DNA of 64,000 nucleotides, from assembly GCA_002269645.1 (NCBI GenBank), contig NIVC01000041.1:434001-498000 (forward strand), written 5' to 3'. Source of the stretch: Macrostomum lignano. Taxonomy: Eukaryota. The notes under the pieces are model-generated. The model was not told the DNA's origin. It was given only the letters and a program-made list of their open reading frames with translations, and searched no databases. Shown in pieces: positions 7,047-64,000 of the stretch; the stretch's first letter is position 1; every line of letters starts with the position of its first letter. A program made the translations under genes and the position numbers.

Positions 7047-7418
7047 ATGCGAGAGAATGCGAGTCCCGACACGGGCCGCGTCATCGTCTGGGCCGGCAAC
7101 AACGACCTCCACCGTGAGAGCTTCGACTTCTCCATCGCCAAGCTCTGGAAGATGAGCCTGACCAACATCAGGAAGGCTTTCCCCGGCGCGTCAATCTGGG
7201 TGGTGCAGACCGTGTGCCCCCCCGATGCGCCGGCGCTCCAGAAGAGTAACTGTCGCAAGACGAACCAGCTCCTGAGCAGCTACCGGTCTGTCAGCCTGAT
7301 CTCGCTGGACACCAAGGACCTGGCATTCCGACGGGACCAGATCAGCCTGGAGCGACAGTCTGCTGATGGGGCGTTCGCCGTCGCCCTGGAGACGGCGGGC
7401 GACCTTCCAAAAAACTGA
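7047..7418 (+). CDS. SGNH/GDSL-hydrolase-like ORF1 (C-terminal half of the fold)
   Basis: VIVWAGNND (block III GxND), [21 protein letters not shown] (block V DxxH position, His replaced by Ser); no GDS block I visible. Confidence 0.6.
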
Positions 7419-7456
7419 GCGGGCCGGGGGCGAGCCATGGGCCCCCCCAACTGAGG

Positions 7457-9661
7457 GTGACGAACCTTTCCAGCCGCGCTCTCGCACCGACTGAACTGCA
7501 ACTGCTGGAGCGCGGCCAGTCCTTCGTAGTGGCTCCTCGGTGCACCTCGGCGGAGTCTCTGGCGTCCGGCGTCCGCAACTTTGGCGAGCGTCTGGCCGTG
7601 TCGGCGGCTCGCGGCTTCAAGCGCGAACTGACGGTGGACGACGGTCCGCCGCTTCCCCGCCGCCCAACGGCCAGCATCGATCCGAGCCGCCTCCGGCCCG
7701 AAATTAAAGCCGCTCTGGCGGAGCTGGACGACGTCAGGGAGAACATCCGGGACTGCAGGAACGCTCCAAACGTCAGCCAGGCGGAGGCAAAGGCACTGCG
7801 AGATCTGCGGGCAGACAAGTCCATCGTCATCAAGCCGGCCGACAAGGGCAGCCAGCTGGTCATCCTGGACCGGCAGGACTATGTCCGTGAATGCCTGCGT
7901 CAGCTGGAAGACCCGCTGTTTTACCGACCTCTGAGCGCACCGATCAGCCGCTTCACAGCCCAGATGATCCGCGGCGTCTTCAGATCGCTGCTGGACCGAA
8001 GGATCATCGATCGGCGCCAGTTCAACGCCTTCTGCCCGAAGGAGGAGTTCCGCACGCGGTGCTTCTACATCCTGCCGAAGATCCACAAGCCCGTCGAGTC
8101 GTGGCCGCTCGGCGACATTCCTCCGGGCCGGCCCATCGTGTCTGACGTGGACAGCGAGTCTTACGCCAGCGGCCGCTTCATCGACAGCTTCCTGCAGCCG
8201 ATCGTCATCCAGCTGCCCAGCTTCATCAGGGACACTGACCACTTCCAAGCCGCCATCCGCGGGATCGCCTGTGCGGCGTCCGAGGAGTCCTTCCTGTTCA
8301 CCATGGACGTCGCCAGCCTTTACACCAACATCCCGACCGCGGCCGGACTCGAGTGCGTACAGAGGGCCTTCAGGGAGCACCCGGATGCCAGGCGCCCAGA
8401 CGCGAGTCTCCTCAGTCTGCTCAAGCTTAACCTGGAGCGCAACGACTTCGAATTCGACGGCAAATTTTTCCTGCAAGTGAAAGGCACGGCCATGGGGAAG
8501 TCGTTTGCACCCAGCTACAGCAACATCTACATGGGCTACTGGGAGCAGCGGGGCCTGGAGCTCAGCCCGCAGAAGCCCGCCCTGTGGCTGCGCTACATTG
8601 ACGACATCTTCGGCGTCTGGCACGGAACGAGAGACGAGCTGGTCCGCTTCCACGAGCTCCTGGATGGCCTCGACCCGAACATCAGGTTGCAGCTGAGCTA
8701 CAGCAGCACCGAGGTCAACTTCCTGGACACCACCGTCTTCTGGGACCGCGAGGGGGACTCCAAGCGTCTGGCGACTAGAGTCTTCTTCAAGCCCACGGAC
8801 AGCCGAGCTCTTATCCACCGCGACTCATTCCACCCGAGGCGGACGTTCAAGGGTGTGGTCAAGTCCCAGCTCATCAGATACGCCCGCAGGTGCTCCCGGA
8901 TGGTCGACTTCGACGCGGCCTGCACCGAGCTGCTGTCGAATCTGGTGCAGCACCAGGGCTACAACAGGCGTTTTCTACGCAATATCAAATACGAGGTGCT
9001 GGCGGAGCTGGGTTTCTACCCGACAAGGCGGTGGGAGTTCGGCTTCCTGCCGTGCAACCCGGCCCGGCTGTGCAAGTGCTGCCAGGCGCACGCCAGATTC
9101 ACCTCCGTCTGCCCGGGATCTGCGTCCACGACCGTCAAGATCACCATCAGCCAGAGGATCGACTGCAACTCGGTCAACGCTGTCTACACCGTGTTCTGCC
9201 GCCGCTGCAGCTGCACGGTCTACGTCGGCGAGACGGTCAACAGCATCCGGGCCCGCATGCTAGCGCACGTCGGCGACATCAGGCACGCACGCGACACTCC
9301 GGTGGCCCGCCACTTCAGCAACGATGGCCATAGTCTCGAGGACTTTGCCTTCACCGGAGTGTGGACGCGGGACGGCTCTGGACCCAAGGCCAATGAACGA
9401 CGTCAACGCCAGGAGGCCAAACTCATCGCGGTCCTGAAAACTCTGGTCCCACATGGCGCCAACGAGCTGGCCGGGGTGCTGCACAATCCGGCGATCCCAC
9501 TGATTGTGCCGCACTGCGCTGGGTCAGACACCCTGGTTGCCAAGGTGAGGGACGGCGTGGCACAGCACTGCGATGCCCCTGTACTGCCGGCCTTCACTAA
9601 AGGGAGGAGCCTTCGGGATCTACTCTGCCACAGCCAGCTCGAACCAGCTTCTGCCAATTGA
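7457..9661 (+). CDS. Penelope-like reverse transcriptase plus GIY-YIG endonuclease
   Basis: VTNLS..L...E..LLERG, YILPKIHK, GRPIVS, TMDVASLYTNIP, QVKGTAMG, RYIDDIFGVW, VNFLD; PCN..RLCKCC linker; VYTVFC..CS..VYVGET...IRARM..H. The frame is open from 7367 with no ATG before the RT N-terminus. Confidence 0.95.
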   Translation: MTNLSSRALAPTELQLLERGQSFVVAPRCTSAESLASGVRNFGERLAVSAARGFKRELTVDDGPPLPRRPTASIDPSRLRPEIKAALAELDDVRENIRDCRNAPNVSQAEAKALRDLRADKSIVIKPADKGSQLVILDRQDYVRECLRQLEDPLFYRPLSAPISRFTAQMIRGVFRSLLDRRIIDRRQFNAFCPKEEFRTRCFYILPKIHKPVESWPLGDIPPGRPIVSDVDSESYASGRFIDSFLQPIVIQLPSFIRDTDHFQAAIRGIACAASEESFLFTMDVASLYTNIPTAAGLECVQRAFREHPDARRPDASLLSLLKLNLERNDFEFDGKFFLQVKGTAMGKSFAPSYSNIYMGYWEQRGLELSPQKPALWLRYIDDIFGVWHGTRDELVRFHELLDGLDPNIRLQLSYSSTEVNFLDTTVFWDREGDSKRLATRVFFKPTDSRALIHRDSFHPRRTFKGVVKSQLIRYARRCSRMVDFDAACTELLSNLVQHQGYNRRFLRNIKYEVLAELGFYPTRRWEFGFLPCNPARLCKCCQAHARFTSVCPGSASTTVKITISQRIDCNSVNAVYTVFCRRCSCTVYVGETVNSIRARMLAHVGDIRHARDTPVARHFSNDGHSLEDFAFTGVWTRDGSGPKANERRQRQEAKLIAVLKTLVPHGANELAGVLHNPAIPLIVPHCAGSDTLVAKVRDGVAQHCDAPVLPAFTKGRSLRDLLCHSQLEPASAN

Positions 9662-49799: not shown

Positions 49800-50883
49800 C
49801 ATGAAGGGTGTCATGTAAAAATTAAATGCAGCTATAATGCTGTGCTGGGGAGAATAACTGAGACGTAAAGGCTCTCAGAGAATAACTGAGATTACGGGGG
49901 GGGGTTTCTGAGATGTCAAAGCAAAAGTCAGAAGCTACTTCAAAGTTCATGTACTTTACTCAATTTTTTTATTGCATTATTTGTTGGCTCGCCACGGGGG
50001 GCGCTGATAGAAGAAGAGTCATGTAAAAAATAAAAGTAGCACTATGTATACATAAAATAAAAGTCATGTCAAAGTTAAAAGATTTATTTGGGAATTGCAA
50101 CGATGTCAAAGCTTGGTGGAAATCGTTATAGTGCTATGATTCTTAAAGAAGGAATCACTAAAATGTCAAGGCTTAGGGGAGAAGAATTGCTGAGATTTCA
50201 AGGCTTTAGGTTGGGTTAAAGTTAGGTTTAGGTCAGGTGTGGGTTGAGGGTTAGATTTTAGCGGGTTTCAAGGTTAACAGGGGATTTTTTAGATTTCAAG
50301 GTTTATGGGGGCCATCGCTGACATGTCAAGGCTTACGGGGGGAATAGCTTAGATGTCAAGGCTCACGGGGGTATAAATGAGATTTCAAGGCTAAAGTCAG
50401 AAGCTACATGTAGTTTATTGAAAACTTTTTATTACATTATTTGATGCCTCCTCAGGGGAGGGATCGCTGATAAAAAAAGTGTAATGTAAAAAATAAAAGA
50501 AGCTTCATGTCGAAGTTAAGATATTCATTTTATAATCGCTATAATGCTGTAGTAGTGCTATGATGACTCTTAGAGAGAATTACTGAAATTTCAATGCTTT
50601 AGGGTTGGGTTAGGGTTAGGGTTAGGCTATAGGGTTAGGGTTAGGCTAGCGTTAGGGTTAGAAGGTTGACAGATATTTTTTATATTTCCAAGGCTTATTG
50701 GGGGCATTGCTGAGATGTCAAGGGGGGAAGTTGATATGTTAATGCTTGTGGGGGAATTAATGACATGTCAAGGCTTACAAGGTTTCACAGGAGATTTTTT
50801 AAGATTTCAAGGATACATGTAGCTTATTAAAAAAATGTGTATTGCATTTCTTTGGCTCCCCAACGGGGGGCGTAGATTGCTAG
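49800..50883 (+). mobile_element. Possible non-autonomous Helitron-like element (3' end seen, 5' end not located)
   Basis: Hairpin CTCCCC-AAC-GGGGGG (50856-50870) 9 nt before CTAG|T (50880-50883); internal repeated modules and TTAGGG tracts. Confidence 0.4.
50598..50661 (+). repeat. Interstitial (TTAGGG)n telomere-like tract
   Basis: TTAGGGTTGGGTTAGGGTTAGGGTTAGGCTATAGGGTTAGGGTTAGGCTAGCGTTAGGGTTAG. Confidence 0.85.
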
Positions 50884-51420: not shown

Positions 51421-53603
51421 AGGAAGAAGTTGTAAAACCACAGATGGCATCCAGTGCACAAAAGAAAATTTTCTAAAGTGCAGTGCATGCATAGGCGTGC
51501 AGCCTCTTATGAAAAAGGCCTAAACACTTGTCATTTATAATGCTTAGAGATGTTTCAAGATATTGATTTTGATTTTCCTAAATTCTGAATTTTTACAAGT
51601 AAATAACAAATTAAAAAAAATTGAAAGTCAAAATTTTGTTGTGCCTAAAAAGTGACTAAAAATAAACTAATTTCTGCTACATATATATGCATTTTGTTTT
51701 GAACAAAGTTTGAACAAGTTTGAACAAAGTTTTAACAATTTGATACTATTTAGTATTCAGGACAATAGTTTTTTTGGAAATTGGAAGATTTATAAAACAG
51801 TGAAAACAAAAAGACCATTTTTGAACAGATTCATTTTAAAGTTCTTTATTCCAATAAGCTGCCATGGAGACAAGCTAGAAATTATCAACATGGATCTATA
51901 TGGATAAAATTAGAATTATTAGCATAGGACCATGGGCATGAGGATAAACATTTCCTTTAGAATTATATCTTGTCTCATCTCATCCTATCTTTAGTTCCTT
52001 TGCTTGACTTATAACCCTTTTTGTCTCAAAAATATATCAAATTTTTAATAGCTCTAAAAGTTATATCAAAAATACTAATTAAAAAGTTTTTTGGCAAAAA
52101 TGGTCATAGCCCCTGCCCTAATACTTAATACTAGCCTTATATTAGGCCTAATAATAGGCAAAATACATTACAAAAAGTTAAATAAAAAGTTTAACAATTT
52201 TTTTAACTAGTATCAGGCCTAGTAAGAAATAAGTTGTCTTTTTATTCAAGCAAATGAGATTAGGCCCTAATAAAATTGAATAAATTGTAAAAACTTTTAA
52301 ATCTCACTGGAGTCCATACAGCTAGGGTTATAGCCTAGGCAAGGTCTGGAATAAAATGATATAAATCTACTACTAGGGTAGGCCCTAACGCCTTAAACTG
52401 AAACTAGGCTAAGGACAAGACAAGGCTCGATGTTAAGTAGGCCCTAACCTAATGAATCTAGGCCTAATCTAACTAAAAAAAACGATATATTTGAAAAGCC
52501 ATTTAAAAATAGATCAAGCACTAGCTGGATATACGAGGGCTGATAATTGACAGTTGAAGCCATAAGCTTCAACGTGAACTGGAACGTGAACTGGTCCAAT
52601 CCTTGCGAATAGGCTTAAATTGAAAAGTTGACTTCCATAGTCCAAATATAGAGCTAGGTTCAATGAACGTACGTGCGTGTGTGTTACCGGGTGTTAGTAA
52701 AACAAATTCTTGACTTTGAAAAACTCCTGAAATCGTACATGTCGTAAAAAAATAATCTTATTTAATTTAATAAGATAATTAGATTTTCTAATATTTCCGG
52801 ACTTTACTTTCAAAGCTTCACTAGAAACTATGCTGTTTTAACTATTTTTTTTCTTCTTTTTGATCACAATCAGAGCTGAGCGCCAAATATAGTACTAATT
52901 TCATAATCCGCAATAGTGAAGAGATTTGAATTAAAAGAAGTTATTGATATTTACTAGAGCAGAACCGTGTCATCATCCAATGCCTGAAAAAAGTGAGTAT
53001 TTTCAACAGATTGGTTCAGATTGTAAATTGAACGTTTTGTATAAATCCACGTATACAAATGACCAGCTCTATATCCCTATCCAAAGCACAGAGATTATTT
53101 AAATTTTTGCTTAAGATGTTCGCCAGCTGTAATAGTGTCTGAATTTCACTTTATTTATTAAATTTGGGTTTTAAGTGGATAAAAATCGAAATAATCCTGG
53201 TTTACCACCTCACTTACCGTATTTTCTGTGGTTCCTAGACACTTCGATTGTCATCTTACCACTTCCAAGCATCCTAAAACCATGGTCCCTTCGTCAGCTG
53301 GATGACGAAGTGGTAAGATGACGAAGTGTCCAGGAACCATTTGCTATTGCCCAAACGAGTATGTTATATTGTAACTTAACCCCGTCCATAGTCTTTAACT
53401 CCTAGTCAGTGATTTGTAACTGCTGTAGAGAAAATTCAGCCACTATCATGCCAAAAACAAAATTGAGTTCTTCGACAGTGCTTTGAATTTTTTCGGACTT
53501 GCCATTTGTATTAATATTATATGTTACCGAAACGAGCGAAACAGAAAAAAAGTAAAGTGTTTACTTTTTGAGTTAATTACTGGAGGAATAAGAAAAAAAT
53601 GAT

Positions 53604-54298
53604 ACTACTAAGGGATTCCGAATCCGCCCTTTTTGGAGGTGGGGTGGGTGTCAACCCTCCTCGCCTCTCATTGGCTAGCGCGCGCGCCGCAGGCGCGTGG
53701 CGCCAAGCGCCATCCAGGCGCCAATTAGGCGCCCATGCCGCAGGCGCACCTACCGATATGTATGCCCACCCTCCCGATATGTACCCCGATATGTATGCCC
53801 TCCCTCCCGATATGTACCCCGATATGTATGCCCTCCCTCCCGGTATGTATGCCGCAGGCGCACCCTCCCTCCAGAGCAGCAGGCGCCCATGCTGCAGGCG
53901 CCCCATGCCGCAAGCACCCCGAGTGTACACTCTCCCATGCCGCTGGCGCCCCGAGTGTACACTCTCCCGAGCCGCAGGCACCCCGAGTGTACACTCTCCC
54001 CAGTACGGGTGTACACTCTACCACTCTCCCGATATGTATGCATACACAGATATCTAGTCAGCGATATTAGGCTAGTGAAAACTACTTATAGTAGATGAAA
54101 TTGCGTATATTTACATAAAAAGTAGATAAAACATATTGGTAGGTGTGAATAATGACGCATAATGCATATTAAAATGTACATATTGGAGCATAATAGGAAT
54201 ATGAGCAGCAAAATACACACAATGTAGGCGCATCAATATATTGACAGAAATAGACAAAGCAGGTACTGTAGGCGCTACATAGGTGGAAATACACACAG
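53604..54298 (+). repeat. Left terminal inverted repeat, about 695 bp
   Basis: Reverse-complement match, with indels, to 62716-63376. Confidence 0.9.
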
Positions 54299-55245
54299 TA
54301 TATTGCACACACTCTAGATTCCAATTATGTAGGTGCATAGGCTAAAATACACACACTGTAGGTGCAAATTGAGTATAATACACTAAAATTATAATACATA
54401 GCATATAATGTAGGCGCATTTTAAACAATACATTTTTGCATAATAACCCGCAGGTACAAATTTCAGTGCATAGGCTAAAATACACACACTGCAAATTGAG
54501 TATAATGCAGGAAAATTGTGACATATACAACATATGTATGCAAATTAAGCATATAATGTAGGTGTAAAATACAAGCAACCGGCTCCCTAGTAAACAGACA
54601 CGCCCCCAGAGCCAGGGCCGGGGGATCCCAAGTACAGTGCGGTCAGAGAGGAGTAACATAGAGAAATTCCTCCCCAAGCCCCAAATAAGGTTTTTTCATG
54701 GGGATCCCAAGTACAGTTCAGGCAGAGAGCATTCCAATCCTCCCCAAATGGGGGTTATCAAGGACCCCTCACATTGCACAGGGCGGGCAGAATAACAGAC
54801 CGCATACAAATAGGGGTTTTAGCGGATCCCAAGTACAGTGCGCTCCCAGGTGTCAAATGATGCCCCAATGTACAGTGGAGGTAGAGTAACAGACCGCATA
54901 CAAAGAGAATTCCAGTCAAACTTTACAGCACCTCCCACCCCAAATGAGGGTTTTAGTGGATCCCCAGAGGGTAGCTCTCCAAGTTGAGGGATCCCCCCAG
55001 TGTGTTGCGAGGCCCAAGTACAGTGCAGGCAGAGAGTAATAGAGACCGCCCCGAGGGAATAGGTGTCAAATGGGAGTTTTAACACTTGAGGGGATCCCGC
55101 TCAATGTACAGTGGAGGCGCCAAATGAGTAAGGACCCCTAAGTACAGTGCGGGCGTAAAACCATTTTCATCCCCACGAGTCAAGGGATCCCAAGTGGGCA
55201 CATAGGGGAATCCCAGGCGTGCAAAGACAGATCCTTATCTTTCAC

Positions 55246-58200
55246 TCACTCCCGAAAGCCATACGGGCGGCTAGCGGCCCCATACACTCTCTTAGTCATT
55301 ACGCGCTGGAATGTCTTGTCCATCTCGAGGGTCCGGATTGTACAGCTAGCCTTATCGCGCCTGAACTGGGCCTGGGGCAGCCGTACAGTCCCGCCGTGAC
55401 GCAGAATTTCCTGCAGCTCGTCCTCGCGCTCGGAAATCTCGGGCGTGACTCTGATGCCCTTGCACTTGAGCACCGAGTACAGCGACCCGTCGGGCTTCTC
55501 CACCACGTACCGGTAGAGCTTGGGGCCTCCCGTGGTGAACTGTACCATGCGGCAGCCAGCAGGTACCTCGTCAGTCCACTGCCCCAAACTCGAACCGCCC
55601 GGAGGCTCGTACTCGCCCGGAGAGCAGCGGTATACGACCCTGGGAGGAGGAGAAGGATAAAGTGTTAAGGGGAGAAAGAGAGACAGAGACAGTTGAAAAA
55701 ATTACTCACGAATCAGTATCGGCGTAAATGACGCGGGTTCCTAGACCCTCCAGAGCCTCGTAGAGTCGCAGCCGGGCGTGGGAGGTGGTGAAAACGCCAA
55801 TAGGTACATTAGCGTACTTGAACGCCCGCTCGCCAGCACCGCCAAATCGGGGCTTGTACTCGAGCATCATGAAGCTCTCCCCAATTGGCTCGCACGACTT
55901 GACCTTGATCGAGGGGTCGGTCAGGCGCTGCAGCCACGCCTCGTAGCTGTCCACAATCTCTGTGGAGGTCAGGTCGTCGCGCTGGCAGAATTTGCCCCAG
56001 AGCCTGCAGGGAAAAATAATTTTTTTTGTAAGTAGAAAAACACGGCCCCCACTGCAAGTAGAAAAAACTTACGAGTTTAGAAAAATCTTGGCCACAAAGC
56101 GCAAGCCAGGATTCTCCTCCACCTTTTCCAGCCGGACGCCTTCGCGCTCGAAAAAGCTGGCCATGTAGGCAGCCTTGGCGTCCTCAGCCATCCCCGGCGA
56201 ACCGCTAGACTCGGCTTTGAGCTTCAAAAAAGTGTTTACATAATCTGCAAACAGGCCCGTGCGAGTCTCGGTCCAATAGGCCAGGGCATGAACTGACTGC
56301 AGCTTGTAACCCAACTGCAGGGCTTTGTGGAGCTCTGGGGTCGACCACGTGCCGCGGAGCATTCTCTCAGCGTCAGTGTGTGTACACTCGCTGCTGCACT
56401 GGGTCTCCATGCAGACGCGGCAGAGGCCGAAAACCAACTTCTTGTTAATCTTGGAGGGCAGTAGCGGGATGTGGAGATTGGTTGGCGGCAGAATCGACAC
56501 CTCGGCGATGCCAAAATACCGGGCCAGCTGCAGCTCATCCAGTAGATGAGGCTCGGGGTGGTGTACCGGGTGCCCGACCGGGTACTTGTCAAACTTGTTG
56601 ACAGTCGGGTAGAGCGACACCTAGGGGATAAGGATAAGATAAACTCAAACGCATGTCAACTGTGTGTGTACAAGTGTACAAACTTACCACATCCCGATAG
56701 CGCAGCTCTACAGTCTCGGTGGCCTCGGCGTGCGGGACAAAAGCCTCGGTACGGCCGCCAAACAGGGCATCCTCCAGGTGAATAGGCTGCTGGACTGGCG
56801 CTCCCTCGTCCTGATAGTCGTGCTCCCACAGAACACGCACATTGTATGCAGTGGAGAGCAACCGGGTGAAGCGCTCAGTCTCCTCATAAATCGCCCGCAT
56901 TGGCTGGTTCTTGAGCGGGTGCAGCACGTCGCCGTTGGGGAAGCACTTGGGACAGCCATGGTAGAAACAGCCATGAAACTGCAGCACTGTCCTGGTCTCT
57001 GGGTCGAAGCCGTCGACCTTACGGCCCATGGCGAAAGCCTCGCCGCCAGAATCGGCTGTCCGCAACCGGCCGCCAAACTCGGTTGCATTCAAATGCGCAA
57101 GCCAGCACCGCGCCTTGTGCGACTGTACATCGGACCGGCGGGAAATCACCCCAAGAGTGTTGGGCTCCATAAACTTGGTGGTGAAAACAGCCATAGCCAA
57201 GCCCGCAATGGTGTTGGATTGAACAAATGCGTCCAGTCCGCAAATGTCCTTAATCAGGCGGGTGTACTTTAGACAGCCTTCCCGCAAAATTAACGTGTCC
57301 TGCAGGCAGTAGTCCAGGTACTCCTTATTGAAATTAAACACCTGTCCCTCCTGCTTGGCCAGCCAGTCTGCGATGGAGTCATGCTGCTTGTTTTTCTTTC
57401 CTCCATACATATCAATTGAGCAGTAGGGACCGACGTACCCCCAATTTTCCGGCTGGTTAAACACGTGCGGGAAATCTCCTTTGGTCAGTTGGGTGCCCAA
57501 ACCAAGCGCCTTTGGGAATTGCGCCAGACCAATAGGGATGAAATTGAGGCTGTCCTTGAAGGTGATCTTGTCGCACTTCATATACATTAGGCGGCTGTTC
57601 TGGAAGATCACTTGCGGCTTCTTCTTGGCCAGTCCGTTGAGTAGGGCGCCGAGCAGGAGGAATGCGTCATACGCAGAGCCATTGTGCGCAATAGCAATTG
57701 CCCCCTGCTTGAACACACTAGTCAGCCAGCAGTAAAAGGCATCGATAGAGTGCGGCCCGACAGATACAAACTCTCGCATCCCACAGGCACAGTCATTGTG
57801 CGAGACACAGCTCGTGAAATCGAGTGCCAAATCGCGTCCCGCAATGCAATTGGCTGAGCTGTGTAGTCCCCCGCACACGCTGCAGCGGGGCCTGGGGAAG
57901 AGTTTGGGACACGCCTCGCAGGAGGTGGCAGCCGTAACCAAGTGTACCCGGTGCTGCTTGCCAGAGTCCACGTACGTCTCGAAATCATAGTAAACATACG
58001 GGGCGCTAGACTCTTTGGCTTTAGGGGGGGTGACAAAGCACTCGTGGGTGGCAGTTTCGTCGTACTGCTTGCAGACTGGGCACTTGGCGTAACCACACTG
58101 ATGCTCAGGGGGCTGGCCTACTTTTAGTTCTTCTAGATAGCCACACGTGTCGCAAACGTGGACCGAATCACAGCGCGATCTGCCGGCCTTATTCTTGCGC

Positions 58201-60256
58201 TTGTGATTTTCTAGGCACTGAGCATTATAGCAATTTAGCCCGCAATCATGGCATCTTACATATGCGCGGTTTGCCTTACAGTTGGAGCCCGGAGTCTTGC
58301 ATGTGCTGCAGGCATCAGCGCACTTGTGCTTCTCATTATTGCAGTCGTGGGCCATCTCGCACTTGTCGCAGTAGTGGTGGCTGCCGAAAAACGCAGGCAG
58401 CTTGGTGACCACATTAAAGTGCTGCTCGACCAGGTGTAGGTGCAAAATCTCGGTGCCAGGCAGGTTGAAGATGCACCTGTTGGCCTCCTCTGCGCGGTAC
58501 ACGCGTACACCAAAATCGCGCCCCGGATGCAGCCGGTTCAGGGCACGGATCGCTTCGGGCAGTGCATCCACGCCGAAAGGACCAGCCTGCGAGACGGTTT
58601 GAAGAGTCTGTGTGGAGGGTAAAATATTTCTTTTAGTATTCCTTATCGTAAAATTTCTTATCAGAAAATTTTAGTATTCCATGATACTGTGTAAAAATCT
58701 TATCAGAAAATTTTAGTATTCCATGATACTGTGTAAAAATTCTTATCGGAAAAATACTAGAAACTTACCGAGTAGAGACCCGCTTCGATTTGTAGCTCAG
58801 CCACCAGCTTAGTCTGCGTGGGCGAATTGGCCTTGATTGTGTGCCACACCTGCTTGGTGATGGACTTGGCCACGAATTGCAGGTAGGCGCAGGCCACGAC
58901 CAGAGCGCGCAGCAGGCATCTCTTGTCCGAGTTGGTGATGCGGACATAGTGCCTGGAGAAGGCATGCCGCTCTTCTAGATGCTTGTTCTCGAGAGCACAT
59001 CCACCTCGAGGCACCCAGGCCTTTAGCAGACGGACAGAAAAGTTGCCTGACAATACAGTGGCATCCGACTGCACAATCTTGTCAATGTGCTTAAACAACA
59101 ATTCAGCCGTCATGCGGGCTGCACGCACCGGGGGAGTATGGGCTGCTTTGAGCATATTGTCGCTCTCGAATTTCGCAGCCATGAAATCCTCGCCGGCCAA
59201 ATCTTGCTTGAAAACTTCGAGCATGTCGGCAAACACCTCCCGCAAATCTTCGGTGTTGGTAATATGCACCACATACTCGACACCCTTTGCCCTAAACTTG
59301 GGCAGGTCACGCTGATTATCCAGCCGGGCCGTAAAACCTGCATGGGGGGGATGGGGGTGTGTGAGTCAGCTAGGGTCTGTGTGGGAAATGGGGGGCGGGA
59401 TAACTCACCCGGTCCGGTAACAGATTCCGGCTGTGTTGGCGGGACAAACGCGTCTGAAAAAACACAAGGAGATAAAAAACCAGAAGAATCTGTCATTTTC
59501 CTGGCCCCAGCGTGTTTCCCCGCCCTAGCCCCAGCAATTTCTTAACAGAGTTTACTCTGCTGTCCCCGCAGCAACTCTCTGCAATTTCTTATCTGCACCC
59601 CCGCTGCAGCCTGTCGCAGCAGTCTTTGTTTACTCACCCCTGCAACTCTCTGTCGCAGCAATTTGCACCCCAGCTGCAGCCTGTCTGGGTAGCGCCCTAT
59701 CTGCAGCCCCAGTCTGTCCCAGCAACTCTCTGCCCCCACCCGGCTGTAACTTGTCTAGCCTGCCCCAACGATTCTGCAGCAATTTCTTATCTGCCGCAGC
59801 ACCCTAGCAACTGTCTGTTTTTGCAGCAATTTCTTATCAGCACACCCCTCCCTGTCTAGACAACACCCCACCCCAGTCTTTGTTTACTCACCCCTGCAAC
59901 TCTCTGTCGCAGCAATTTGCACCCCAGCTGCAGCCTGTCTGGACAACACCCCCTAGCAGCAATTTCTTATCAGCACACACCCGGCTGAAACTTGTCTAGC
60001 CCTCCCCTGCAACTCTCTGTTACAGACCCTGCCGCAGCACCCTACCCTAGCAACTCCAGTCTAGACCCCTGCAGCTGTCGCAGCAGTCTTTGTTGTTTAC
60101 TCTGCGGTCCCACAGACCCTGCAGCTGCTGCTGCTGCTCAGCCCCTACCCCCACCCTAGCAACTACAGTCTAGACAGAAATTAATTAAAACTTACCATAA
60201 AGACGTTGCCTCTTGTCAGCCAGGAAAGCAGTTGCGGTGGCGCTGCGTTTAGCCAT
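55246..60256 (-). CDS. polB: Protein-primed family B DNA polymerase (terminal-protein region, vOTU-like, Zn-rich, 3'-5' exo, endonuclease-like insert, polymerase), 1269 aa, 7 exons
   Basis: Exons 60256-60196, 59453-59409, 59337-58769, 58586-56688, 56620-56073, 56003-55710, 55639-55246 (3810 nt, all GT-AG, phases consistent; exons 1-2 less certain). ExoI YYDFET, ExoII HNGSAYD, ExoIII YCLQD, GGRTE, motif A YRDV|VSLYP, motif B KIFLNS|LWGKF, motif C YADTDS|VVY, GPKLY, KCKG. Confidence 0.93.
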
Positions 60257-60327
60257 TTTGCAAACAGAGAGCGTGAGAGAGCGAGCGGAGAGAAGGATTA
60301 TCTCTCTACCCTGGCTCTGGGGGTCTG

Positions 60328-60452
60328 TATATATACTAAAAAATCTGCTCAGCTCGCCTGTTATTGGATAAATCGCCAAAAACCAACCAAAATCATCAAA
60401 AATCACCCCCAAAATCATCACCCACCCCACCCTCCATCCGGGGGTATATAAG
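60328..60452. promoter_or_regulatory. Candidate bidirectional promoter between polB and the PC4-like gene
   Basis: TATATATA at 60328-60335 (about 70 nt from the polB ATG), ATTGG at 60363, TATATAAG at 60445-60452 (46 nt from ATG 60498). Confidence 0.55.
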
Positions 60453-60497
60453 GCGCTGCACGGCTGTCAGAGAGCTCTCTGCTGCTGCTGCTAAATC

Positions 60498-61031
60498 ATG
60501 TCTTCTATCTCTCTATACGAAAACTTTGTGGCGCGGAAGCCCACATTTGAAACTGAACACAACTTGATTGAAATTCGGCGTCTCTACACCAACGAGGCTG
60601 GAGTGTGGAAGGACGGCTTCCCTGCAATCTACTTGGCCGAGCCAGAGTGGAAGAAGCTCGAAGCTGCGCGCCCTGACCTGGAGGCTGCTGCCCGCCTTCA
60701 CGTGAACAAGCGGGTCCTGTTGGGCAATTTCAAGGCAGTTGAAGCTTCGCGAGGGAGGATCCGTTTGCTGCGCAATTGGCTCAATCAGGACCCAAAGTTT
60801 AATTGGCGCTACACGATCGAATTCACGCCTGAACTGTGGCGCCGGATGTTTGCCGCCCGTTTGGACAAGCTCTTCAAGCCGGCACCTGAGGCACCCCCTC
60901 CAGCCAAGCGAGTCAAGACAGACACGCCTCCGGTAGCCGGGACTGAGGTGGATGTTCTTCAGCTCATGGGTCTCAAACCCTACCAATCTCCACCCTGGGA
61001 AAATCTGTTTAACGAGGGTTGGGACTGCTAG
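60498..61031 (+). CDS. Tandem PC4-like ssDNA-binding protein, 177 aa
   Basis: LIEIRRLYTNEAGVWKDGFPAIYLAEPEWKKL aligns by eye with PC4 [32 protein letters not shown]; weaker second unit IRLLRNW...TIEFTPELWRRM; NLS-like PPAKRVK. Confidence 0.7.
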   Translation: MSSISLYENFVARKPTFETEHNLIEIRRLYTNEAGVWKDGFPAIYLAEPEWKKLEAARPDLEAAARLHVNKRVLLGNFKAVEASRGRIRLLRNWLNQDPKFNWRYTIEFTPELWRRMFAARLDKLFKPAPEAPPPAKRVKTDTPPVAGTEVDVLQLMGLKPYQSPPWENLFNEGWDC

Positions 61032-61146
61032 TTTCCTATTGGTTCGCACCGCCTCACTCGATCCGTCTATATAATTAGTGTTTCCCCCTCTCCAGAGAGT
61101 CAAACCCTATCTCAGCTCTAATACTTTACTCTCTGTTGATTCTAGC

Positions 61147-62161
61147 ATGTCCCGCCGAGCTCTATCCAACCTCTGGGATAATAATCGCCCGACTGAAGAG
61201 TTAACCAGCCTCGACGGGGATATCCCTGAACACATAGTTCCCCTAGGCACTGAAAACAACGGAAGTGATAATTGGGAGGCTGATCAATATCTAGCTTGGG
61301 CTATGTCCTATGATAGCGACACCGAGTCTGAAGTTTTTGACCTCCCGCTGCTGGCTATCGGCGGGGTTGTGAACGGTGCCCCTGCTGCTACTGCCTCCGA
61401 TTTGACTACCGCCTCAGCCGCCCTCTTTGACGTCTCTGTTGAGGAGCTGACCACAACCGGCCCTGCCTCTGCTGCGCCCGTCTCTGCTGCTGCCGCCTCT
61501 ACTACGCCCGTCTCTGCTGCTGCTTCAACTACCTCCCACCGGGCCTCAATATCATCAGCCGCTACGCTCCTTCTCTTCGACGACGAGGACGAGGATATGT
61601 CTGAGGAGATCGCCGTGGTTCGTGAGCGCTTTCCTCGCATTGTGGCCTCATTTTTCCGCGGGGACATTGACTGGCTGAGGTCTCGGCATCCTGGCGGGCT
61701 GCCCTCCCAAGCTACCTTTGTCAGAGCCTTTAATCGGGTTCTTGATACTTTGGTTGCGAGGGGTGCCGGCCTACGGGAGGTGTTGGAGGCTGAGACTCTG
61801 CACCAGGACTGGTTGATGGGGCGCAATTCGTATGCCCCCGACTCTGAGGCGTACCTGGCCGGTCCGGGAGCGCGGCCAACTGCGTGGGATGAGCCCGTCG
61901 CATGGCCCTCCAACTGGGAGGAGCACCTTTCGTTGGTGCGCTATACAGCGTCTCTACGTCTGTGGCGGCTGGAGGACGATTTAGATTTGGTAAGATATTA
62001 CATTATATACACAACTCATCTAATCATATACCTTGCATATATTCTATCTACATTGACTGTTATAATTTCCACATTGCCAGTCATCCGACTACTGCTTCGA
62101 GAGCGTGGAGGAAGAGGCCGCGTACGAGACAGCCCTGAGGGAGCGTATGGAGATTGACTGA
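61147..62161 (+). CDS. Orphan acidic protein of the element, about 307 aa, 2 exons
   Basis: Exons 61147-61989 and 62081-62161 (TTG|gtaag...ccag|TCA, phase 0); ATTGG at 61038 and TATATAA at 61068 upstream; disordered A/S/T-rich N-half, helical Trp-containing C-half. Confidence 0.7.
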
Positions 62162-62715
62162 TAAGGGTATTTCTCTTTGTACGCGGTTTGGGGAACCCAA
62201 CACTGTACACTGGGTAGGTTAGAATGGGCGCTAGCTGGGGGGCCTCTATGTGTGTATACACGGGGGTTAAAAGACCAATTCTGATAGCTCGCTCCTAGGG
62301 AGGAAATTGGCAGAGGGGCCGGCCCAAAAAACTGTAATGGGCTGGCCCCGGGCTCGAGTCCACCCACCTAAAATATGGAGGTCATTACAACCTAATGACC
62401 CGAAATACTTTCAACGCAATTGTACCCATAAGAGGGTTAGGGCGGCGGCGGCGGTGGCGAAAACGGGCGGCTAAAACCTCCCTTTTGGGATTTCCCCGAA
62501 CCGCTTTTGGTTAAAATTTTTATGCACCTGCGGGTTAGACAATATTTACTCTTTAGTCGGTGTGACATTATTTACGCGTCTGTTGCACCTGGGCGTTTGC
62601 CTATAATCTGATTATACATGCGTGCCTGTATTATACAACTACACCTTATGCATGCCTTGTAAACCTGCTTTATACATTAATCCGATATGTATCGAAAGTA
62701 CACTTTGTAAACCTG

Positions 62716-63376
62716 CTGTGTGTATTTCCACCTATGTAGCGCCTACAGTACCTGCTTTGTCTATTTCTGCCCATACACCTACATTGTGTGTTTTTGCTGC
62801 TCATATGCTCCAATATGTACATTTTAATATGCAATATGCGTCATTATTCACCTACCAATATGTTTTATCTACATTTTTATGTAAATATACTCAATTTCAC
62901 CTACTATAAGTAGTTTTCACTAGCCTAATATCGTTGACTACATATCGGGAGAGTGGTAGAGTGTACCTTTGGCTCGGTAGAGTGTACACTCGGGGTGCCT
63001 GCGGCTCGGTAGAGTGTACACTCGGGGTGCCTGCGGCATGGGCGTCTGCGGCATGGGCGTCTGCGGCATGGGCGCCTACGGCTCGGGAGGGTGCGCCTGC
63101 GGCTCGGGAGGGTGTACATATCGGGGTACATGTCGGTAGGGTGAGCATACATATCGGTAGGTGCGCCTGCGGCTGGGGAGGGTCGCCGGTGGCTCGGGAG
63201 GGTCGCCTGCGGCTGGACGGCGCTTGGCGCCACGCGCCTGCGGCGCGCGCGCGCCGAGCGCCGATATCGATACGGGTATCGATCACCTAGTGATCGGGGC
63301 GCCAGCCAATGAGAGGCGAGGAGGGTTGACACCCACCCCACCTCCAAAATCAAGCCATACGGAATCCCTTAGTAGT
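62716..63376 (-). repeat. Right terminal inverted repeat, about 661 bp
   Basis: Reverse-complement match, with indels, to 53604-54298. Confidence 0.9.
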
Positions 63377-64000
63377 AATGATTTTTTGCTGTAATAGATA
63401 TAGAGATGTCAAATATTTGGCAAAATTTATATTATAACTTTTACTGTACTTACAAAGACAGCATTACATTAGCGCACACAAGGCGACGCTGCATGTACCT
63501 CGTTTGACTTTTCGGGTGCATTATTGTCTACTTATAGTAGGGTATGAGCACTCGAAATGTACTTTGTTGATAAGCTATTTCACTGTATTTAAAAATATCG
63601 TTCTTCAATATCGTCTGAGATCCTGTAGCCTGCAGCTGCCCGCTGGTGCACTTCTGAAAGTGACAGTAATTTTTATCCGTCTAAACATGCTCCATTTTTT
63701 TCAAATGGCAATTATTGCTTTCCAGTTATATTTAACGTTTTTGGAATATTTTCCATTCGTCAGCTGTTAGTATAGATCATTATAGTCAATATTAAGGTCA
63801 CAAAAATGAAGCTTTAGCTATATTCATCTTTGGGTTTTATACAAAAACATGTATTGGATTCCTAAACTGCCGAATGGTCTGGCAAAGCCACATTCGTCAT
63901 TAGCTGACTCAATTAGCTAGCTGGCAGTTTGCACTTTAAAAAGCTTTCCACGCGACTGATGGTGCCAATTCCATTTTTCCAACTTTGTGGAGTCTGCTGC

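Follow-up and report, generated by a model that had tools for sequence, protein, structure and literature searches.

The defining genes of a Polinton are those for a polymerase and an integrase, and there is no agreement on whether these elements behave as viruses or as transposons when they spread. A locus in Macrostomum lignano raises the question of how a small Polinton-like element with a polymerase but without integrase or virion genes came to be inserted there, and whether it is a single defective copy or a member of a family of its own. We analyzed a window of 64,000 nt of contig NIVC01000041.1, and all element coordinates given here are positions in that stretch. An initial annotation had proposed a three-gene, self-replicating satellite that borrows its integrase from a helper Polinton.

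Architecture of the small element

The element occupies positions 53604-63376 and is bounded by ends of the form 5'-ACTACT...AGTAGT-3'. The annotated 9,773-bp unit with a 6-bp TSD was confirmed, with AATGAT on both flanks (53598..53603 and 63377..63382). The left TIR (53604..54298, plus strand) begins ACTACTA and the right TIR (62716..63376, minus strand) terminates TAGTAGT; their lengths, ~695 and ~660 bp, agree with the annotated ~0.7 kb, and in this copy their identity is only 74-81%. The polymerase gene and the remaining two genes cover 54% of the element, and the rest, including a repeat-rich segment at 54299..55245 and a non-coding segment at 62162..62715, has no conserved long ORF.

The pPolB gene (55246..60256, minus strand) comprises seven exons (60256-60196, 59453-59409, 59337-58769, 58607-56688, 56620-56073, 56003-55710, and 55639-55246) separated by six GT-AG introns, the first of which is repeat-rich and 742 nt long (59454..60195). 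The uninterrupted spliced pPolB that had been annotated was borne out: the 3,831-nt coding sequence encodes 1,276 aa, its sole stop is terminal, all core motifs were found (YDFE, AHNGSAYD, YRDVVSLYP, KIFLNSLWGK, and YADTDS), and PF03175 matched two exon ORFs in Pfam (E 7.8e-18 and 6e-13). The element thus has the protein-primed family B polymerase of a Polinton; its six introns depart from the core genes of intact Polintons, which are reported to be intronless (PMC8097293). Using domain names taken from PMC11161782 and PMC10748475 and assigned by motif, we recognized a putative TP domain, a vOTU domain (Cys in RCLLRAL, His in EQHFN), a Cys-rich region, an exonuclease, a VSR-type insert (FHGCFYHGC), and a palm. 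Sequence similarity in the putative TP domain was weak (7/150 relatives at E<0.01). Since a VSR-like motif occurs in 110/150 outside relatives, it represents no special adaptation here. The predicted fold of window positions 58190-58601 was of too low confidence to use (pLDDT 39). A FastTree pPolB tree of 46 rows carried long-branch warnings, was rooted for drawing only, and included no clade test.

A spacer at 60257..60497, a putative shared promoter region, lies between the pPolB gene and a divergently oriented PC4-like gene (60498..61031, plus strand, 177 aa). The Pfam PC4 match was weak (E 0.19), but the PC4-like assignment was upheld by the top Atlas match, a PC4 cluster (0.90), and by similarity to the PC4-like gene of a co-resident complete Polinton (28%, E about 1e-5). 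From its family, the protein would be expected to bind ssDNA. The orphan gene (61147..62161, plus strand; exons 61147-61989 and 62081-62161) encodes 307 aa with an acidic, low-complexity N-half and a C-half predicted to be helical. It had no usable match in Atlas, and the all-helical, low-confidence model of its C-half (pLDDT 57) gave only generic helical matches in a fold search (best Z 8.0, rmsd 3.5, 87 residues).

Public contigs contain the exon joints of all six pPolB introns and of the orphan's 91-nt intron. Every joint was recovered from at least three of the four runs, whose types were guessed and whose contigs may derive from any copy of the family. The joints also occurred in one run guessed to be DNA, and the stretch was not found in any run recorded as RNA. 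Judging from these joints, the element is likely transcribed.

No integrase or virion gene was found, as the initial annotation had stated. Among 30 spare ORFs of the element, 0/30 matched Pfam at E<=0.05, under conditions in which a control integrase matched rve (2.5e-16). Pfam alone cannot detect capsid, ATPase, or protease genes in the Polintons studied here, having overlooked the ATPases and capsid-like ORFs of complete Polintons; a genome-wide absence of Pox_A32 matches (0) was accordingly discarded as evidence, ATPases having been read directly in two complete Polintons. We also compared 19 proteins of co-resident complete Polintons with 17 small elements in six frames (tblastn), and only PC4 matched, although cross-family ATPase and capsid controls did match. 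By this comparison none of the 17 copies contains an rve integrase, major or minor capsid protein, packaging ATPase, or adenain protease, and no spliced integrase or capsid gene emerged inside the annotated interval.

A family of small copies and its sister family

The genome contains at least 16 other copies with 95-98% identity over the core (best 17 of 401 candidates), 8,455-9,705 bp long and each with a perfect 6-bp TSD (16/16); including the window copy, the family spans 8.5-9.8 kb with perfect TSDs in 17/17. The TIR core occurred 251 times in the genome, against 1 occurrence for a reversed control. Among 100 listed matches to it, 38 end pairs could be formed, of which 31 span 8-10.7 kb, five are shorter, and two are longer; in a second set of 23 end pairs, 20 are 8-10.7 kb apart and no pair exceeds that range. 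This substantiates the prediction of a family of ~9.8-kb copies with their own TSDs and rules out a one-off internal deletion; a longer parent carrying integrase or capsid genes was not found. The predicted three-gene content held for nine of the 17 copies, while seven have two genes and one is internally rearranged. The minimal unit is therefore two genes, with the orphan optional.

The TIRs of the window copy are divergent because its two ends are mismatched. The first 740 bp of the segment at 54299..55245 have counterparts at the ends of two-gene copies (84% in three cases) and are absent from the other three-gene copies, and the sequence from 62475 onward is part of the ~0.9-kb TIR of three-gene copies. 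TIRs in 13/16 other copies are 0.87-1.32 kb long with 93-100% identity. All 34/34 ends start with ACTACTA, and these seven terminal bases are the only ones invariant across the family; the 17 terminal bp suggested as a common end are not family-wide.

The polymerase is under purifying selection: against 15 copies its dN/dS, for which the initial annotation had called, was 0.085-0.161 (the pairs are not independent), with no point nonsense codon. Pooled pN/pS was 0.31 for the PC4-like gene and 0.13 for the orphan, based on few changes.

A sister family encodes a pPolB with 64-65% amino acid identity that has five intron positions in common with that of the main family. It has ACTAC ends and a 6-bp TSD in 4/4 copies, and three copies that carry a polymerase span 9.5-9.7 kb; its remaining arm was sampled in one copy (964 of about 3,350 bp). 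When an external VSR-type pPolB served as the query, only the main and sister families matched (best 36 of 461 candidates). No relative of the element was found in viral_contigs, nor was the family found in the literature searched.

Candidate sources of the integrase

We propose that the family is probably a self-replicating, integration-dependent Polinton derivative that uses an rve integrase in trans. A long-lived Polinton-derived lineage would have kept the replication module (pPolB and the PC4-like protein) and lost the integrase and the entire virion module. The host would transcribe and splice an integrated copy, pPolB, using its terminal-protein domain as primer, would start at the ACTACT ends and copy a linear molecule, and the rve-type integrase of a complete Polinton, acting in trans, would insert that copy, producing the 6-bp TSD. 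In the assembled contigs analyzed, neither an extrachromosomal form nor a fresh insertion was seen. The family would be mobile, and gene-poor derivatives with the same ends may exploit the element in turn.

Potential donors co-reside with the family: Polinton integrase had at least 151 matches in the genome (best 150 of 718 candidates). Ends were read in two complete Polintons, the right end at C114 and the inner element at C106, the latter with its own 6-bp TSD. Both end in AGTAGT, their TIRs do not resemble those of the small families, and in BLAST their polymerases matched the small-element pPolB barely or not at all. The annotated satellite was sustained by its many copies, selected polymerase, and lack of a longer parent, but a helper with matching ends, or sharing the terminal 17 bp, was not found among these two Polintons. 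A difference in ends between the element and its helpers, whose polymerases are only distantly related, may be the reason why it retains a polymerase. Its ends are AC-type and do not have the 5'-AG...CT-3' motif, (AGT)2 or (AG)3, of Polintons/Mavericks. AC-type ends are a known minority form: swamp eel has intact Mavericks that end in 5'-AC...GT-3' (PMC8097293), which shows that an integrase can act on ends of this kind.

Three longer loci were considered. The only long span read, the 21-kb C106, was ruled out as a full-length parent, being a complete AGTAGT-ended Polinton nested in a shell with family TIRs. C271 (40.6 kb), with family pPolB and PC4 matches near both ends and another family's pPolB between them, is probably a nested insertion. 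At C1023, an integrase match lies 20 kb from an unpaired family end at the contig start.

It is unlikely that insertion proceeds without any Polinton, through the integrase of an LTR retrotransposon, through some other DDE integrase, or because the VSR-type insert or the orphan has a cryptic activity. The mismatch between the family's ends and those of resident complete Polintons would suit such a route, as would the automatic UniRef name 'DDE_Tnp_1_7' of one orphan homolog and an integrated polinton-like virus reported without a detectable integrase (PMC11296320). However, the automatic names of the six orphan homologs all differ and none of these proteins has a Pfam domain, the orphan's C-half is predicted at low confidence to be all-helical, the seven orphan-less copies still have perfect TSDs, the VSR-like motif is common to most outside relatives, and a TSD fixed at 6 bp in 21/21 cases is more readily explained by an rve integrase than by nicking.

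We consider it about as unlikely that the family is one half of a bipartite Polinton, complemented by an ACTAC-ended partner with integrase and virion genes and no polymerase. Only about eight of the integrase matches could be tied to a nearby pPolB, C3189 and C2301 have inverted PC4-integrase pairs ~10-13 kb apart, C664 has a PC4 pair in inverted orientation, and polymerase-less mobile Polintons are reported in butterflies (bioRxiv 10.1101/2025.02.07.637071). Yet only one of the 38 listed TIR-core pairs, the nested C106, has an integrase match (compared by eye), the two members of the integrase group that were read each encode a pPolB and end in AGTAGT, and the low pPolB count near integrases may only reflect its scope (best 91 of 974 candidates).

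Passive deletion derivatives of a complete Polinton, with the intact polymerase a parental relic, are a reading already largely refuted and highly improbable: short derivatives with family ends exist (spans of 1.4-8 kb) and 11/15 other copies have small indels in pPolB exons, but these are nearly all single-base deletions without a nonsense codon, as would be expected from sequencing error, synonymous divergence reaches 0.10 at dN/dS near 0.12 with all copies in the small layout, two families ~36% apart in protein have a common layout and introns unlike the intronless core genes of intact Polintons, and the VSR-type query recovered no parent among the best 36 of 461 candidates.

Comparison with known mobile elements

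Without an integrase or a capsid of its own, this lineage has reached on the order of 100 copies with its polymerase under selection. This suggests that protein-primed copying and integration are separable in the animal nucleus and that spread within a genome requires no self-encoded virion. Published surveys demand integrase and capsid genes or AG-type ends and would therefore overlook such elements. As the host, Macrostomum lignano could serve as a laboratory animal in which to follow protein-primed replication of Polintons.

The family resembles Polintons/Mavericks (adintoviruses), especially those of molluscs and marine nematodes with a VSR-bearing pPolB2 (PMC10748475): its pPolB has vOTU and VSR-type motifs, its TIRs are long, its ends are trinucleotide repeats, its TSD is 6 bp, and it has the PC4-like gene in common with co-resident Polintons. 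Unlike them, it lacks integrase, ATPase, protease, and capsid genes, is 8.5-10 kb rather than 13-25 kb long, has six spliceosomal introns in its polymerase, and begins with (ACT)2 instead of (AGT)2. The polymerase-less butterfly Polintons of that preprint are likewise incomplete yet mobile, presumably helped in trans; they are the mirror case, having lost polB and kept the other core genes, whereas here only the replication module is kept. The polinton-like viruses AHEV_PLV1 and Ca_PLV1 have PolB and no detectable integrase, one of them is integrated, and help in trans has been suggested for them (PMC11296320); they are single, capsid-encoding examples, in contrast to the many dated, TSD-flanked copies without a capsid gene described here.

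Cytoplasmic linear plasmids, transpovirons (PMC11161782), and capsid-less fungal pPolB elements (PMC13215967) are also capsid-less, TIR-bounded replicons of Polinton-like ancestry with a TP-vOTU-pPolB core protein. The small family differs in that it resides in the nuclear genome of an animal, its TSDs are of the integrase type, and its introns are spliced by the host, whereas the linear plasmids are cytoplasmic. Cytoplasmic linear plasmids carry their own transcription genes, and transpovirons, unlike the small family, rely on giant viruses and have pPolB fused to a helicase; neither a pPolB-SF1 helicase fusion nor transcription genes were found among the domains and ORFs of the element. On an evenly balanced judgement, the family could constitute an undescribed class of nuclear satellite replicon, replication-autonomous and integration-dependent, that gained introns and split into two families, either as a parasite of unrelated Polintons' integrase or as the polymerase segment of a bipartite Polinton. 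Such a class would connect Polinton viruses to linear replicons without a capsid, as an intermediate that still exists today.

Structure and gene content of the element

The Polinton-derived element occupies window positions 53604–63376 (9,773 bp), begins with ACTACT, ends with AGTAGT and is flanked on both sides by AATGAT. Three genes, which together make up 54% of the element, were recognized: a protein-primed family B polymerase (pPolB) on the minus strand, with seven exons encoding 1,276 aa without an internal stop and with every core motif present, and, on the plus strand, a PC4-like gene (177 aa) and an orphan gene (307 aa). Splice joints for all six pPolB introns and the 91-nt orphan intron were each found in three or four of the four public runs compared; splicing thus appears well supported, while transcription falls short of proof because the runs consist of contigs whose type had to be guessed (DNA, for one of them) and which could derive from any copy. 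The nearest database proteins are 55–99% identical and labelled Macrostomum lignano, which makes this flatworm, or one closely related to it, the most likely host. Relatives of pPolB outside that label are mostly 29–40% identical, and those that carry a name belong to a sea anemone, to a beetle and to bivalves. The catalytic Cys and His motifs of vOTU, a motif-assigned domain, are present in pPolB. Homologs of the orphan carry the same species label only; their six automatic names conflict and no domain was recognized in them. The C-terminal half of the orphan is all-helical in a low-confidence predicted fold.

Searches of 17 elements of the family with 19 proteins from three complete Polintons of the same genome matched with PC4 alone; as a control, ATPase and capsid-like queries matched each other across complete-Polinton families. 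No Pfam match was found in 30 spare ORFs, and a control integrase matched rve at 2.5e-16. The element encodes nothing for integration or packaging, in agreement with the initial annotation. Control proteins were presumed to be capsid or ATPase from position, size, Walker A motif and the usual Polinton layout, and those confirmed by Pfam were only integrase, chromodomain, a weak adenain match and TBP.

Elsewhere in the window, an open 764-aa ORF (7367–9661) with RT (YIDD) and GIY-YIG-like motifs resembles a Penelope-type retroelement. Positions 1–50700 presumably hold DEAD-box helicase-like, nocturnin-like and TFIIE-alpha-like host genes, whose introns are filled with minisatellites. The window has 91 tandem-repeat rows and a TTAGGG tract at 50599–50661.

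Copies, selection and a sister family

The family is real and probably recently active. A DNA search (best 17 of 401 candidates) recovered the element and 16 further copies at 95–98% identity over the core, all 16 with a perfect 6-bp TSD and lengths of 8,455–9,705 bp; two of them (on contigs C1573 and C1640) could be duplicate assemblies of a single site. Multiple copies with their own 6-bp TSDs, named in the initial annotation as support for a family, were recovered; all three genes are present in 9/17 copies, 7/17 lack the orphan and one is internally rearranged. The orphan is dispensable for insertion. In the genome, an 18-base core of the TIR was counted 251 times, versus once for a reversed control; among 100 of these matches listed there were 38 pairs, 31 spanning 8–10.7 kb, five shorter and two longer, and 20 of 23 pairs of the terminal 17-mer span 8–10.7 kb, none being longer. 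That 17-mer, which the initial annotation suggested looking for in a helper, is not common to the whole family, with only the first seven bases (ACTACTA) invariant over 34 ends and positions 8–17 falling into nine variants, possibly of origin specificity. This hypervariable 10-base tract (window 53611–53620) immediately follows ACTACTA in ends that are otherwise near-identical.

The study element is chimeric: its left end resembles that of two-gene copies and its right end that of three-gene copies, which explains why its ~0.7-kb TIRs are just 74–81% identical; TIRs in 13/16 other copies are 0.87–1.32 kb at 93–100%. Because the chimera sits inside a perfect TSD, its structure suggests that recombination preceded insertion.

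A dN/dS comparison, proposed in the initial annotation, gave 0.085–0.161 for pPolB against 15 copies (dS 0.044–0.099; a copy without some pPolB exons was excluded), with zero point nonsense codons and a median of 0.126 over 116 non-independent copy pairs. The reading is uninterrupted in 4/15 other copies; the small indels in 11/15 are nearly all single-base deletions, which suggests sequencing error. As judged from these sequences, the polymerase is maintained in the family.

A sister family, likewise small and polymerase-bearing, with ends ACTACGTAG, has a polymerase 64–65% identical in amino acids, sharing five intron positions, and a divergent PC4-like gene (45%) at four loci. All 4/4 copies checked have a 6-bp TSD, and three polymerase-bearing copies span 9.5–9.7 kb, among 13 end pairs of 0.25–18 kb. 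Four slices of one arm of a single sister copy (964 of ~3,350 bp; controls worked) gave no integrase or virion match, a coverage that leaves room for a spliced integrase. Both polymerases form one long-branched group (support 100; FastTree only, with long-branch warnings) among VSR-type polymerases, apart from three complete Polintons, and an outside VSR-type query matched only these two families in the genome (best 36 of 461 candidates). The small layout is old.

The 13.8-kb span of the sister copy on C2286 is due in part to a 1,094-aa LINE-type ORF inside it (slice L037:2-3283), and sister copies on G000:C3085, C4430 and C2786 have palindromic polymerase 3' halves. Ends of the two families bound 1.4-kb and 247-bp elements (G000:C1483:67319-68736; C1368:57955-58201; C4195:41473-41719), too short to hold a polymerase. 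In a 40.6-kb span (G000:C271:276978-317519), pPolB and PC4 of the study family lie close to the ends, and a pPolB from another family lies inside. A third PC4-like group (38–42% identity) lies at G000:C1753, C1176:237401 and C157:88061.

Candidate helpers and the route of integration

The genome holds several further pPolB families (best 91 of 974 candidates), at least 151 Polinton integrase matches and, in three regions read, Polinton gene sets. A 21-kb span (G000:C106:353964-375020; slices L045-L056, L058) contains a complete Polinton of 12.1 kb that ends in AGTAGT and has its own TSD, CTAGCA. This span was rejected as a long copy of the study family: the complete Polinton is nested in a shell with that family's TIRs and with internal inverted repeats, and no slice read matched the family's polymerase.

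From the observed anatomy, copy number, TSDs, selection and presence of helpers, we consider the family probably a self-replicating Polinton derivative whose rve integrase is supplied in trans. The host would transcribe and splice the integrated copy, and copying primed by the terminal protein would start at the ACTACT ends, where a jump-back start, as used in adenovirus replication, is conceivable. The vOTU domain would cleave the terminal protein, as proposed for Polintons in PMC11161782, and an rve integrase acting in trans would insert the element. The helper Polintons envisaged in the initial annotation do co-reside, but those ends that were read are AGTAGT rather than ACTACT, no TIR similarity to the study family was found at them and the helpers' polymerases are barely alignable to its pPolB, which speaks against a simple helper model; the fixed 6-bp TSD in 21/21 cases and the AC-type ends of intact swamp-eel Mavericks (PMC8097293) favour it. 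An unrelated or cryptic integration route is unlikely, and a bipartite Polinton about equally so. Passive relics are very improbable.

In another Polinton family, the region at the left end (L039:4538-4840) forms an inverted repeat that runs from AGTAGT to ACTACTACT. A GC-rich motif of 14 bases comes next and recurs in the study element's TIR; this arrangement may offer a lead to the origin of ACTACT ends, or the match may be due to chance. Among the genes of complete Polintons in this genome are ones for deoxynucleoside kinase, dUTPase and a TBP-like protein (L043:5450-6046, L044:939-1760, L041:5768-6397). At three places (G000:C3189:42057-55467, C2301:56787-68609, C664:26387-38306), matches to PC4 and/or integrase form inverted pairs 10–13 kb apart, which may be palindromic, polymerase-less Polintons.

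Comparison with known elements

Non-autonomous Polintons are reportedly named in the founding Polinton paper. A full-text literature search found no description of such a family; Repbase and Dfam may list its repeats unanalysed. The comparison drew on PMC10748475, PMC8097293, PMC13215967, PMC11296320, PMC11161782, PMC8502044, bioRxiv 2022.07.12.499685, bioRxiv 2025.02.07.637071, PMC6431247, PMC3014272 and PMC10175614; elements of a similar kind may appear in the supplementary lists of PMC13215967 and PMC8502044. The study family resembles Polintons in its replication and insertion footprint but departs from them in integrase, virion genes, end motif and the intronless state of Polinton genes, and there is an even chance that it deserves a class of its own.
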